Shown in pieces: positions 2,943 to 9,525 of a DNA stretch of 64,000 bases. A program made the position numbers and the translations under genes. Positions within the stretch are counted from its first letter, which is position 1. Each line of letters starts with the position of its first letter. Source of the stretch: Escherichia phage ZCEC14; sequence record OP168898.1; one strand, 5' to 3'. The notes below the pieces were generated by a model, which worked only from the letters and a program-made list of their open reading frames with translations, ran no database searches and had not been told where the DNA came from.

Positions 2943-3215
2943 ATGAATAAAAATATTGATACAGTTCGTGAAATTATTACTGTTGCGTCTATTTTGATTA
3001 AATTTTCCAGAGAAGATATTGTTGAGAATCGTGCTAATTTTATTGCATTTCTGAATGAGATTGGAGTAACGCATGAAGGTAGAAAATTAAATCAGAATTC
3101 ATTCCGTAAAATTGTTTCTGAATTAACTCAGGAAGATAAGAAAACCCTCATCGACGAATTCAACGAGGGTTTTGAGGGTGTATATCGATATCTAGAGATG
3201 TATACAAACAAATAA
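2943..3215 (+). CDS. asiA: AsiA, anti-sigma-70 factor
   Basis: 90-aa ORF matching recalled T4 AsiA (MNKNIDTVREIITVASILIKF...). Confidence 0.9.
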   Translation: MNKNIDTVREIITVASILIKFSREDIVENRANFIAFLNEIGVTHEGRKLNQNSFRKIVSELTQEDKKTLIDEFNEGFEGVYRYLEMYTNK

Positions 3216-3872
3216 TTATTTAGCCCTTCCTAATATTCTGGCCGCCTGAGAACATATTGATTCAAGGCGGTCATTACTTATATGATCATTTCTATACCAG
3301 TACATGGTTATTGTTCCAGCATAGATATTATCCAAATTAAAATATGGACAACTATACATGTAATTTATTTCGGGAGTAGGCTTTTTAGTTGGTAAAAAAG
3401 CAAATTTTGAATTGGAATAATAATGACGTCCATTTAAATGAACTGTATATTCATCCATAGTTTTATCAACAGGATATCCTCCAAGTGATTTTTCACTTAT
3501 TGTTGAAGGTAATTTTCCTTCATATGCTATAATATCAACAAAATAGTTTAAGTTTTTAGGGCGGAAAGAATACACCGCACTAAAGTCTGCCTCAGATGAT
3601 ATGTGAACTATCTGGAGTTGTTCCAGGGCGACAGATTCAAAGCGTGCATTTCTTTCCTTTTCAATAATTTCACTGTATGTTTCATACTTTGATTGCTTAT
3701 AGTACTCAAAGAAACTATCTCCCCTATACCAAACAATCGCCATTATAAACAAAAGAATTACGACAGCTACCCGGGAAGCAAGAACTTTCCCGGTAGCATT
3801 ATCTTTGAACAAGCGATCTAGAACACCCAACAGAATATCAGAGGGCGAAAATGATATTCTAGGTGCTGCCAT
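3216..3872 (-). CDS. t: holin T
   Basis: 218-aa ORF matching recalled T4 holin (MAAPRISFSPSDIL...ARILGRAK); single N-terminal TM segment; converges on asiA with abutting stop codons. Confidence 0.95.
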   Translation of the reverse strand: MAAPRISFSPSDILLGVLDRLFKDNATGKVLASRVAVVILLFIMAIVWYRGDSFFEYYKQSKYETYSEIIEKERNARFESVALEQLQIVHISSEADFSAVYSFRPKNLNYFVDIIAYEGKLPSTISEKSLGGYPVDKTMDEYTVHLNGRHYYSNSKFAFLPTKKPTPEINYMYSCPYFNLDNIYAGTITMYWYRNDHISNDRLESICSQAARILGRAK

Positions 3873-3902: not shown

Positions 3903-4703
3903 TTATACTCTTGGTCCGTAAATTGTTCCAACAGCACCCCAAGTTGGAGAAGACCCAAACACTGCATGACCAGACGCACCACCAACACCAACTTTAAGAA
4001 CTTTACCGCCGTCAGACCATGCATTCTGACCAGCAGCACCAGCATTACCACCAGCGCCGGAGTGTGCGTTACCATAGTCATAACCACCACCCGGACCTTC
4101 ATACGAAGCAGCACCACCGGAATAACCGCCGCCGCCCGCGGCACCGAAAGGTCGACCGCCACCGCCACCGATATCTTGCCAGTTTGCCCCTGAGTGTGGA
4201 CGATATGCAATACCACCGCCACCGCCACCGCCAGCAGCTATAACACCGTAGTTCCAAATACGAAGCCGTCCACCGATATCATTTTGAATAACATGACCGC
4301 CTTGTGTACCGTTACCGTCGCCTCCTGAGTGAGTGTATCCACCATTACCACCACGACCCCACATATGAACACCACCATGAATATTAAGAACAACATATTC
4401 ATTAGGCGTATCACCATACATAAAGAAAAGTGGCACATCTTTAGAATAAGAAACGATATCACCAACAATATTGAATACAATAGGTGCACCGCCAGCTTCA
4501 AAGCATCTATCACGGAACCACTGACCATTAAAATTGTGGTTTGCTGTTACGGTATGAATAATCTCTTTTGAGCGTCCGGCGAATTGGCTCATCCAACAAG
4601 GAACACCCAATCTTAATTGACCAGCCGCTTGACTCATCCATCGTTGTCCTGTTTCATTTACGGATGAACTTCCAATCCAACCGGGAACACCAACTATTGC
4701 CAT
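3903..4703 (-). CDS. 38: gp38 receptor-recognising adhesin, T2/T6 type, glycine-rich
   Basis: ATG at 4703 six nt after GGAG (track start at 4715 is TTG); 266 aa with poly-Gly motifs (GGGGGGG, GGGGG) between variable segments; position downstream of gene 37. Confidence 0.85.
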
Positions 4704-4716
4704 AATTATCTCCAAA

Positions 4717-4729
4717 GGGGCAAAGCCCC
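4717..4729 (-). promoter_or_regulatory. GC hairpin between gene 37 stop and gene 38 SD
   Basis: GGGG-CTTTG-CCCC on the - strand transcript, located between the gene 37 stop (4736) and the gene 38 SD. Confidence 0.4.
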
Positions 4730-4735
4730 TTGTTG

Positions 4736-7684
4736 TTAGAATTTAAAATAATTACTAATTTTGCGAGCAATTTTAGTGAAGAAAGGCGTTTTTAATTCTT
4801 TAATTTCTTCGCTCATTTCTTGGATAGCCTTAATTAAAAGAGCATTCACAGCGGAGTTAGAAATTGTCAGAACATCAGATCCATCAACTTCAACTTTAGA
4901 CACAGCTTCCGGTAATTCTTTTTCAAGATCCTGAGCAATAATACCAACTTCACGTTTAATAACACTACGATCTTTAATAGACTTAACCTTATCGTATGTA
5001 TAAACTTTCAGTCGGCATACTTTTTCAAGTGCTCCGTTTTCTAGCTCTTTTTTATTAATCTTAAGACGACCATCGGAACGAATATACACATCGCTAAAGT
5101 TACCATTACCAGGAGAATAGAAAGTACCGTCGTAATGAAATTCAAATACCGCGTTAGGATGACCAGCATCAGGAGAAGCCTCCGCAGATCCAACACGAAT
5201 AATTGCTTGTCCCCAATTATTAGGGACACGACGAATACCAAGATCGACGGCAGTTACAAACCCTTGATTGGTGATTACACTTCTTCCTTTAATAATTGGA
5301 TAATAACAATCCTGTGAAACATAACCATGATCGACGAATATTGGCGCTTCTACTCGCCATTGGTTGCCCCAATCACCTGGTTGACTAGCAGTCCAACGTT
5401 CACCATGAACATATAATCGAACGTTATTGACATGAGCCATTTCGACGCCTTTTGGACTTAGCGTGATATCTCCTGCGTTTGTAATGTATACACCAGCATT
5501 AGTAGCATAACTATAGAACGCTAATCCATTATCATCACCACCCTTACCAATATACCAGTTACCAGTCCCGTCTACGTCACCACGAATATGCAAAGAATTA
5601 CTAGCAGGTGCTGATAATACAATAGAATCACCTGGGCTTTGAATTGTCAAGCGTCCGGTCATAATATCACCGCTTTTACCTACGCGAGTATTCAAAGCAG
5701 CGTCTAAGTTGGTTGCATCGTTGTATTTCTTCCAGATTGAACCAGCAATGTTACCATCAGTGTTCAAGAATGCTGCGCCAGCATAAACTCGACTTTGTGA
5801 CATGAATCGGCCAGACGGCAAGAAACGCCATGTAGCTAATTCGTTAGCTGTAGTTCCAGTAGCGGATAAATCACCTTGAGCAATGATACGATATTCTGAA
5901 CTAGCAATATCCATACCAGAAGCCATAGTAATATTTGTTACAGTGTTTTTCTGTTTTACAATAGGAGCAAACTGGTTTTTATTTGAATCGTCAATGGCCT
6001 GATATAATGGCGCAATAGTAATATTCTGATTTGCGTAAGTATTTGAACCAGAACCGCTAGCAGGGCCTTGAATATATGATCCCGGAGCAATTGAAATTTT
6101 CTTATTAGCACCAAGATTAATATCAGCGGTGATATTTAGCAATCCCCTAAAGTTTTGTTGAGCAGTCCAAGTATGTGATCCGTCTTCAAGAACAACACGG
6201 CGACAAGTGTTAGTCCTGTTTCCTGGATTTCCAGCTATACGCACAACAAAATAACGGTAGTTTGTTTGGGATACAGTACCACGCCAAACCTGAACAGTAC
6301 GTCCTGTGCCAGTATGTTCGCTAGGACCAACGGAAAACATAACCAGGTTTCCATCAATCGTGCCCCAATCCATATTTGCTGGCATATTCTTTATTTTTTT
6401 CAAAGGAACGCTAAACATACTACCAGGAACAAAATCAAAGGTTTGCCAATCTAACTCCGATAATTGAGCTTTAATACCACCCATACCCAAAGTAATTGGC
6501 AGAGAATAAGATGTATATACTTCGTTCCATGCACCCCACGCACCACCAGTATATGCACGCTCAAAAATACGATCGCGAGTAGTTTCACCCGTTCCGGCAG
6601 TAGTAAATTTTTGGAAAATAGCACCACCAGAAGCACGCTGTTTAACTTCTAGCAAACCAACAATAACGGCTGGTAAACCTTCGCCTGTAGGGCAATTAAT
6701 AACGGCATCAGTGCCTAAAATATTATATAACCCAGGAGTTTTAAAATCATTCAGATCTCCATCATAAAAAGTCGCTGGTGTGACATTACCGACTTGTTGC
6801 CACGGTCCCCATTTAGGCGCAGAAGCATCCCATGCAGCAGCAAGACAGCGAGTATAAACAACACCAGATCTAGTTGTATAACGCTGAGTTCTTGTGTATA
6901 AACCACCCTCAAAAATTTCCAAAAATCCTTGCGCGGCTGCTCCTTCTTCTGGGTAATGACGGTCAAACGATGCAATAGAACTTGAACTATTTCGCCATAA
7001 GCCGCAATGTTCTAATTCTCCCAAGCTATCAAGGTCAATCGTTTGTGAAAGTGGACGAGTTGACGCTTGAACATTACGCCAAACTCCCCACGGACCGTTA
7101 ACACCGTTCCATTTAGCAGACAAAGATCGAACATATACGTTACCAGATCTTACAGTATATCTCTGAGTACCAGCAAATTGACCGGCCACAAATACTTCTA
7201 GTACACCTACGGCATTTTCTTCTGGGAATTTATTTGCCGGTTGCGCATTTGTTGAAGTAGATTTCGACCAAACCCCAAGATATTCTTCAACAGGCCCATA
7301 CTCATCTAAATTAGCATCAACCGGTAATTCGCCGTTATTTTTTATAAACGTTGTGCTATTGACATTTATGTCAGATGGAGTTAGCGTGATATCTTTTGAC
7401 CCATCAAAGGATATACCATTAATTTTCCTAGGTGTTTGCAATTTAGTAGCTGTGCTAGAATTTCCAATTAAAGTTCCAGTTATATTTCTATTAACAGTTA
7501 AAGAACCATCAATTGTTCCTCCATATTTTAAACCTAATTCTATAACATTGCCTGAGTCATCTTTTGTGAAAATTGCTTTATCTTTTAAATTAATAGCCAA
7601 TTCACCTTCGGCTAATACTGAAGCAGCAGGAAGTTGACCTGCGGTTTTGCTTCTTTTAAATTGTATTTGTTTTAAAGTAGCCAT
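4736..7684 (-). CDS. 37: gp37 long tail fibre distal subunit with C-terminal intramolecular chaperone domain
   Basis: 982-aa ORF, Gly/Ser/Thr-rich fibre sequence; last ~113 aa carry the SDGRLK motif typical of self-cleaving chaperone domains; synteny 34-35-36-37-38. Confidence 0.9.
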
Positions 7685-7692
7685 AAGTCCTC

Positions 7693-8343
7693 TTAATAAT
7701 AGCCGAAATCTTGAACAGAATCCTTAATAACAATTTGATCAAATCGTGGAACATGTGAAGGTTGAGATGCAGGATTCTGTGAAAAAAGGTTTGGCGCAGT
7801 CAAATTTCCTGTCATAGTGTCTCCAGAGCGTAATACTCTAGAGTTTGCGTTTGCTGTAACAATATTTATTGCTCCATCAACATAATCTTTACGAGTAGCA
7901 TCTGATGCTGCGGAAGGAGTAGATGTAACAGTTACAGATGGAGCCGTTACAGCCCTAGTAAATGTTGTCAAACCTTCTGGCGTAATAGTAATTTGTCCAG
8001 TAGTGATTTCACTACCCGCAGGTCTAAAACTAATACCGCCAGAAGAGCCGCCAATTACAAGAGTATTACCGGTACCGCCACCGGAACGAATTCGAATTGG
8101 GGTTTCATTATTACTTAATTGAAGATAACTATTTACCCCGTAATTAATAGTAATTGGACCAGTGTAAGTACCACCAGTAGATTTAGAAACGAAATCATTA
8201 TCAGATGCCTGTGGTTTATTATATTCTGAATATATTTTAAATGATTTGTAGAGTACATCGTCACCGGCTGAATTCAACGGAAAATTTCCTTGATGCCAAA
8301 TGACAGATCCACCTACAGTTGAACCTACTTTTAAATCAGCCAT
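7693..8343 (-). CDS. 36: gp36 long tail fibre hinge connector
   Basis: 216-aa ORF in the gene 36 position; T4 gp36 is about 221 aa. Confidence 0.85.
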
Positions 8344-8406: not shown

Positions 8407-9525
8407 TTAAACTTCTCTAAATTCCTGTCCAAACACTTTACCAGTTTTAGACGATGCCTGTGTAGGAAGTACCATTATATCTGGAGGTGAAGAGGATTCA
8501 CCGATATAATTAACACGAATACCATTGACACCAAATTCAGCAGGTTTTGAAATTCCGCCATTTCTTGATACTTCAGAAAAGCTTAAATTTCTCATGCCGC
8601 CTTGACCTGCTTGAGCAGTTCTTTGTGCATATATCGTAAATCCTACTGCATTTTCAGGAACAACTACATAATCTTCTTTTAATTCCCAAGACCCAGCTTG
8701 CCCAGTAAACTCAGCTTGGGTCGAGGAAATATATCCATTTGATGCATCATAAAAACGAATAGATATATTTGTAGTTCCAAGATCAAGTAAATCAGCATCA
8801 GCATATAGTTGTGCTTTAAGATAAAGAACATCACCAGGAATTAAATTGTAGTCAGAAAGTTTACTTATAGCAGCTGAAGTTGGCAATCGCGCAATTTCAT
8901 TATTAGTTCCTCCAACCGCAGACATAAATTGCTCAACGCTTTCGTATGTTCTTTTAGGAAATCCTGTCGCTTCAACATCTTCTAAACTATCAAATACAAC
9001 ATCTAACATAGTTTGATAGTCATCCGTGCTTTTTCTATTACTTAGTTTAACATGCTCTAATGCAATAGCTCTTTTAGAAGAAGTATAAAAAGCAGCATAT
9101 GATACGTCAAATCTTGACAATACTGAATCTGATGGAAAAACTGAAGTTCCTGCTCCCCTTAACCAAGATACCACTTCAGGAGGAAAATTAACCTTTCCGC
9201 TAGTTAATATAGCAACAAGTCTATTGTTTGACAAAGAATTCATGAAACTAACAAAAGCAGCTGATGTAGTATTATTTGAAGTAGAAAAAGCATATGACTT
9301 ACTATCAACTAATGCTCCTGTGGAAGGGTCAAAAACTCTTAAATGAAGACCTGCGTCGAACGTTTGACTTCCTACAGGATTATCCTGAAATTTAACGTAT
9401 GGTCCTTCTGCAGTAGAAAGCGGGCAAGAACCCGCTATGCTTATTTTATATCTTACTGAATTGCTTTCCGATAAAAATGGCGTTTGGACATATCCTTGTC
9501 CAAACTCTGCCATAAATTTTTCCAT
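8407..9525 (-). CDS. 35: gp35 long tail fibre hinge protein
   Basis: 372-aa ORF matching recalled T4 gp35 N-terminus (MEKFMAEFGQGYVQTPFLSESNSVRYKISIAG...). Confidence 0.9.
   Translation of the reverse strand: MEKFMAEFGQGYVQTPFLSESNSVRYKISIAGSCPLSTAEGPYVKFQDNPVGSQTFDAGLHLRVFDPSTGALVDSKSYAFSTSNNTTSAAFVSFMNSLSNNRLVAILTSGKVNFPPEVVSWLRGAGTSVFPSDSVLSRFDVSYAAFYTSSKRAIALEHVKLSNRKSTDDYQTMLDVVFDSLEDVEATGFPKRTYESVEQFMSAVGGTNNEIARLPTSAAISKLSDYNLIPGDVLYLKAQLYADADLLDLGTTNISIRFYDASNGYISSTQAEFTGQAGSWELKEDYVVVPENAVGFTIYAQRTAQAGQGGMRNLSFSEVSRNGGISKPAEFGVNGIRVNYIGESSSPPDIMVLPTQASSKTGKVFGQEFREV

Follow-up and report, generated by a model that had tools for sequence, protein, structure and literature searches.

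The long tail fibre protein gp37 of Escherichia phage ZCEC14 very probably ends in a self-cleaving intramolecular chaperone of the peptidase S74 family

The long-tail-fibre locus of Escherichia phage ZCEC14 raises the question where the distal fibre subunit, gp37, ends in the mature fibre and, by extension, which protein carries the receptor-binding element. An original prediction, made from the letters of the 64-kb window (i.e. the whole stretch of DNA that was analysed), held that the C-terminus of gp37 constitutes an intramolecular chaperone (IMC) that folds the fibre trimer and then excises itself at a conserved serine. The analysis presented here leads to the view that gp37 residues 870-982 form a C-terminal IMC domain of the peptidase S74 family, which very probably cleaves itself off, after which gp38 would cap the exposed tip. 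The DNA of the locus is 97.7% identical to that of Escherichia phage vB_VIPECOOM01, in which the gene is annotated as long tail fiber distal subunit, and it also resembles many other Tequatrovirus genomes in a megablast search. The layout of the gene and its product is as follows:

4736..7684, minus strand: gp37 precursor (distal long-tail-fibre subunit), an ORF of 982 aa plus stop
5078..7684, minus strand: predicted mature gp37, residues 1-869, with the C-terminal end ...NFSDVYIR, as delimited by the putative R869-S870 site
5075..5077, minus strand: codon of Ser870, the predicted nucleophile, with which the released chaperone would begin (position 1 of PF13884; S16 alignment; 24/24 homologues)
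5060..5062, minus strand: codon of Lys875, predicted general base at Ser+5 (spacing as in T5 pb1; kept in the homologues that span the site)
4739..5077, minus strand: C-terminal IMC/peptidase S74 domain, residues 870-982, 113 aa (Pfam, PDB sequence matches, AlphaFold2, Foldseek)
4901..5077, minus strand: Pfam core of Peptidase_S74, residues 870-928 (profile positions 1-57 of 58)
4748..4858, minus strand: long C-terminal helix, residues 943-979, presumed to be a coiled coil in the trimer (AlphaFold2 monomer model)

The last residue, Phe982, is encoded on the minus strand at 4739-4741 and the stop codon lies at 4736-4738; given the codon positions of Ser870 and of this last residue, the interval 4739-5077 corresponds exactly to Ser870-Phe982, i.e. 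113 residues, and the coordinates and residue numbers given beforehand for the domain were thus exact to the base. In the translated ORF the 15-residue motif that had been singled out comprises residues 868-882 and includes Ser870.

A search of gp37 against Pfam-A yielded two matches, namely PF20744 (gp37_trimer) at residues 693-736 and PF13884 (Peptidase_S74, "chaperone of endosialidase") at residues 870-928. The latter (E = 9.9e-12) scores 45.4 bits, the curated cutoff being 22 bits, opens precisely at Ser870 and spans positions 1-57 of the 58 in the profile, so that the similarity to the S74/chaperone-of-endosialidase profile on which the original prediction had staked its case is found well above the threshold. 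The domain occupies the extreme C-terminus (residue 870 to the last, 982) of a protein that builds a trimeric fibre. When searched with phmmer against the sequences in the PDB, the last 134 residues of gp37 give a match to 6F45_A, the S16 gp37 construct, that extends over the cleavage site (E = 3e-5, 27.8 bits); with a profile built from 23 homologues the same match improves to E = 5e-15, and this profile also reaches the ICA domain of the myelin regulatory factor (MyRF; 7dc3). By tblastn, a homologous C-terminal domain was recovered in 1555 phage records, mostly annotated as 'long tail fiber distal subunit' or 'tail fiber', which include T-even relatives, RB69, RB43, T5-like phages, Streptococcus PblB proteins and cyanophages. 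Within the 64-kb window, an IMC profile run against 343 six-frame ORFs found gp37 as its sole match (E = 7e-49, the next best being 0.79), i.e. no second IMC is present on other ORFs, such as other fibre genes.

The catalytic motif of the family is intact in gp37: S870-D-G-R-L-K875 provides a Ser and a Lys at +5 (S-x4-K), and a regex check recovered one S-D-x-x-L-K motif in each of the 24 homologues that span the site. These homologues came from a word-indexed search and are mostly short, partial proteins, which suffice for assessing motif conservation and make for a shallow alignment in the case of AlphaFold. Ser870, which is position 1 of the Pfam profile, aligns with the second Ser of the S16 cleavage site DLNVS^SDRRIKK. 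T5 pb1 is cleaved between Thr1263 and Ser1264, with Lys1269 activating Ser1264, and the exchange S1264A blocks self-cleavage of the recombinant protein in E. coli (PMC4690869); the spacing of Ser1264 and Lys1269 equals that of Ser870 and Lys875 in gp37. The assignment of the conserved Ser as the site of excision is therefore upheld as far as the residue is concerned, and cleavage at this residue is to be expected by analogy with S16 and T5.

In T5 and K1F a 'folding sensor', in which an upstream Arg of the neighbouring chain (with an Asp) contributes to the oxyanion hole, couples cleavage to correct folding. The equivalent sensor Arg/Asp could not be located in gp37 by alignment, because the sequence of the tip before the cleavage site is unrelated to that of T5 and K1F; Arg869 (at P1) and Asp865 do lie near the site.

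A second 'SD' (in SDVYIR, residues 864-869; 5078-5095, minus strand) lies six residues upstream of the true SDGRLK. It caused MAFFT to shift the distant homologues, which carry SDVALK, by six columns in an alignment of the family (A1). The resulting register, in which SDVALK is set against the decoy SDVYIR and not against SDGRLK, was discarded, since each sequence contains a single S-D-x3-K and the position of Ser870 is set by the Pfam profile. Automated calls of cleavage sites in this S74 gp37 family could repeat the same six-residue misregister. The profile derived from A1 also matched chains of the Bordetella phage protein Mtd (1yu0 and others). These matches involve profile positions 3-65, which derive from the N-terminal parts of homologues of unrelated length, and they are irrelevant here because the matched columns stem from those other homologues and not from the sequence in the window.

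At the level of structure, an AlphaFold2 monomer model of the C-terminal fragment (based on a shallow alignment of 23 sequences; mean pLDDT 72.9, with no residue at or above 90) consists of a compact alpha/beta unit followed by a continuous helix of 37 residues (fragment residues 95-131, i.e. gp37 943-979), the pLDDT averaging about 61-85 per block. The helical segment that had been anticipated downstream of the motif thus has a modelled counterpart at residues 943-979. The pLDDT drops below 50 for exactly the 22 residues up to and including Ser870. A Foldseek search of the model against the PDB returned IMC domains for all 12 best matches (7dc3, 3gud, 3gw6, 4uw8), the remainder being noise (E of at least 1). 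The best match is the MyRF ICA domain 7dc3 (E = 2e-5, TM-score 0.65); for endoNF and T5 the TM-score reaches only 0.44-0.51. The model therefore suggests a fold of the IMC type, i.e. a small mixed alpha/beta unit with a C-terminal helix that would presumably form a trimeric coiled coil.

The protein that would cap the gp37 tip is encoded next to it. The flanking genes follow the T-even order g35-g36-g37-g38-t-asiA:

3903..4703, minus strand: gp38 adhesin of the T2/S16 type, 266 aa plus stop (PF05268 GP38, E = 7.5e-67; PF21721 Gp38_N, E = 3.5e-19)
4578..4703, minus strand: N-terminal attachment domain of gp38, residues 1-42, with Trp9, Trp22 and Trp37 (Gp38_N match, T2 alignment)
330-965: 211-aa ORF of the size of motA (synteny, size, annotations of megablast hits)
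2943-3215, plus strand: 90-aa ORF in the place of asiA (same evidence)
3216-3872, minus strand: putative holin t, 218 aa (same evidence)
7693-8343, minus strand: putative gp36, 216 aa (same evidence)
8407-9525, minus strand: putative gp35, 372 aa (same evidence)

The ATG of gp38 opens 32 nt downstream of the gp37 stop codon. The program-made ORF list starts gp38 at a TTG (4713-4715), and the ATG at 4701-4703 comes seven bases after a GGAG (4710-4713). The latter should be taken as the real start, because both the Gp38_N match (residues 5-46 in the numbering from the TTG, or 1-42 when counted from the ATG) and the alignment with T2 gp38 begin at MAIVGVPGW. Overall the protein is 44% identical to T2 gp38, with a nearly identical N-terminus in which Trp9, Trp22 and Trp37 are kept; in S16, three Trp residues of gp38 plug into pockets at the gp37 tip (PMC6851490). 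The T2-type gp38 partner that the original prediction called for is thus encoded directly downstream, as an adhesin of the glycine-rich GP38 family that has both the Gp38_N domain and the three docking Trp residues, and judging by the S16 structure 6F45 and by T2 genetics one copy of it would be expected to cap the processed gp37 trimer.

The 32-nt gap between g37 and g38 contains a GC-rich hairpin, AAGGGGC-TTT-GCCCCTT, at 4715-4731 (minus strand), for which RNAfold gives -11.9 kcal/mol in a 41-nt context and which is followed by no T-run. The hairpin could influence the stability of the mRNA or translational coupling of g38. None of the Rfam families matches at its gathering threshold anywhere in the 64-kb window.

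By homology with the characterized members of the family, for chaperone function, self-cleavage, the exact scissile bond and capping by gp38 alike, the following course of events can be proposed. Three copies of the IMC would associate, probably via the long C-terminal helix, and this association would nucleate the trimerisation and folding of the upstream, beta-structured fibre tip. After correct folding of the tip, Lys875 would activate Ser870 for attack on the Arg869-Ser870 bond in each chain, upon which the 113-residue chaperone would dissociate. The new C-terminus, ...DVYIR, would then form a flat trimeric tip that serves as the socket for a single gp38, which would dock through the three Trp residues of its N-terminal helical bundle. 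Given a mature fibre that ends at Arg869, the receptor-binding element, i.e. the receptor-binding loops, would therefore be borne by gp38 and not by the C-terminus of gp37.

It is conceivable that the domain is a genuine S74-type chaperone which is removed by another phage or host protease instead of by self-cleavage, and the statement in PMC3157838 that the C-terminus is 'proteolytically cleaved', which names no protease, would be compatible with this. Nevertheless, the strict conservation of the Ser/Lys pair, the fact that one Ser-to-Ala change abolishes cleavage of T5 pb1 in a recombinant setting in E. coli (PMC4690869) and the reported autocleavage of the S16 IMC (PMC7917993) render it extremely unlikely. 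Alternatively, the IMC might be a degenerate, non-cleaving version that is kept in the virion, in which case gp38 would bind elsewhere or would not be a tip adhesin at all. We consider this just as improbable, in view of the intact catalytic motif, the conservation with T2 of the gp38 attachment domain and its three Trp residues, and the obvious conservation of the domain itself (45% identity to T2 versus about 24% for the fibre shaft); moreover, in S16 the docking surface becomes exposed only after release of the IMC (PMC7917993). The idea that the motif resembles IMCs by accident and that the C-terminus simply belongs to the fibre shaft can be dismissed in the face of a Pfam match over the full profile (E = 1e-11), top fold-search matches that are exclusively IMC domains and the homologous C-termini in 1555 phage records.

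Self-cleavage by an S74-type IMC is thus the reading that we retain. Compared to T2, gp37 is strongly mosaic, with 78% identity over residues 1-63, 45% identity over residues 846-969 and, for the shaft that separates them, about 24% identity or no possible alignment. Compared to the Yersinia phage fPS-2, similarity is restricted to residues 1-62 and 531-982. An unusually tight mosaic junction just before the IMC has been described in PMC7917993.

The very end of the domain is a basic/aromatic tail of 17 residues (gp37 residues 966-982; 4739-4789, minus strand), which lies beyond the end of the T2 IMC; the S16 sequence was aligned only up to gp37 residue ~967. The tail is identical in fPS-2, nearly so in P0001, and absent from more distant IMCs. 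Probably it does no more than complete the helix or coiled coil. We deem it very unlikely that the tail gives the released chaperone a second job, for instance in transient membrane association or in handing gp38 to the DVYIR tip; if it did, the role of the IMC would go beyond that of a throw-away aid to folding.

The self-cleaving IMC end of gp37 is already known: it has been published for near-identical Yersinia phages, and experiments on T2 and S16 support it. The value of the present finding therefore lies mainly in annotation and engineering; it brings no new biology and will not surprise a specialist. In practical terms, constructs for fibre expression or for swapping host range need to retain the IMC for the trimer to fold, and the DVYIR tip, the IMC and the N-terminal domain of gp38 are best treated as one co-adapted module.

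The arrangement in ZCEC14 can be compared with several known systems. K1F endoNF (3GW6) and T5 pb1 (4UW8) share with gp37 the Pfam family, the Ser...Lys(+5) motif, the location at the C-terminus of a trimeric fibre or spike and a related predicted fold. They differ from it in that the identity in the fold alignments is low (9-16%) and the folded protein upstream is another one; in addition, the shorter domain of gp37 shows no sign of the long beta-hairpin 'tentacles' found in T5 pb1.

T4 gp37 holds the same position in the fibre, has a homologous N-terminus and is encoded within the same gene order as in ZCEC14. For the folding of its fibre T4 uses the separate chaperones gp38 and gp57A. In a Pfam control, T4 gp37 showed no match to S74 and ended in Collar and fibre-repeat domains, and T4 gp38 matched no adhesin family. 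The same control applied to T2 placed PF13884 at residues 1243-1300 of its gp37 (1341 aa) and the GP38 adhesin in the next gene. The contrast between T2-type phages and T4 that had been claimed beforehand hence holds at the level of the sequence, with both S74 and the GP38 adhesin in T2 and neither in T4. Receptor binding in T4 is the task of gp37 itself (PMC6851490, PMC3157838).

For S16 the gp37-gp38 tip complex is available as PDB 6F45 (work of Dunne et al. 2018, described here after PMC7917993 and PMC6851490). In S16 gp37 the IMC takes up the 113 C-terminal residues; it autocleaves at DLNVS^SDRRIKK and thereby exposes the docking surface for gp38 (PMC7917993). The system resembles that of ZCEC14 in the 113-residue C-terminal IMC, and after its autocleavage one gp38 caps the trimer via three Trp residues. 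The sequence of the tip before the cleavage site is nevertheless unrelated, P1 is a Ser in S16 and an Arg in gp37, and the similarity of the IMCs is moderate.

T2 gp37 shows 45% identity to that of ZCEC14 over the stretch that starts about 24 residues ahead of the site and runs to the C-terminus; VYIR^SD is conserved there, with NVYIR in T2 in the place of DVYIR, whereas identity in the fibre shaft amounts to only about 24%. The part that T2 would lose comprises 99 residues, as against 113 in ZCEC14 gp37, and the IMCs hence differ in length at the C-terminal end, where that of T2 is without the 17-residue tail. The C-terminus of gp37 of T2 and T6 is described as 'proteolytically cleaved' (PMC3157838), and the processing of T2 gp37 was shown by Drexler et al. 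1986, a paper cited in PMC3157838.

The closest counterparts are the Yersinia phages fPS-2, -65 and -90. Here a paper from 2021 predicts cleavage at DVYIR^SDGRLKI, and this claim is, as in the present case, a prediction; the same paper takes the DVYIR strand to be the docking tip for gp38 (PMC7917993). The cleavage-site string is identical to that of ZCEC14 gp37. Gp245 of fPS-2 is somewhat longer (1018 aa versus 982 aa), its first ~62 residues are 77% identical, and BLASTP found no significant similarity to it between gp37 residues ~62 and ~531. Over gp37 residues 531-982 the two are 68% identical overall, and within the IMC 112 of the 113 residues are the same. The gene order g36-g37-g38-t is shared as well, and the published reading equals the one given here, i.e. 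the IMC would cleave itself off and gp38 would dock onto the DVYIR tip.
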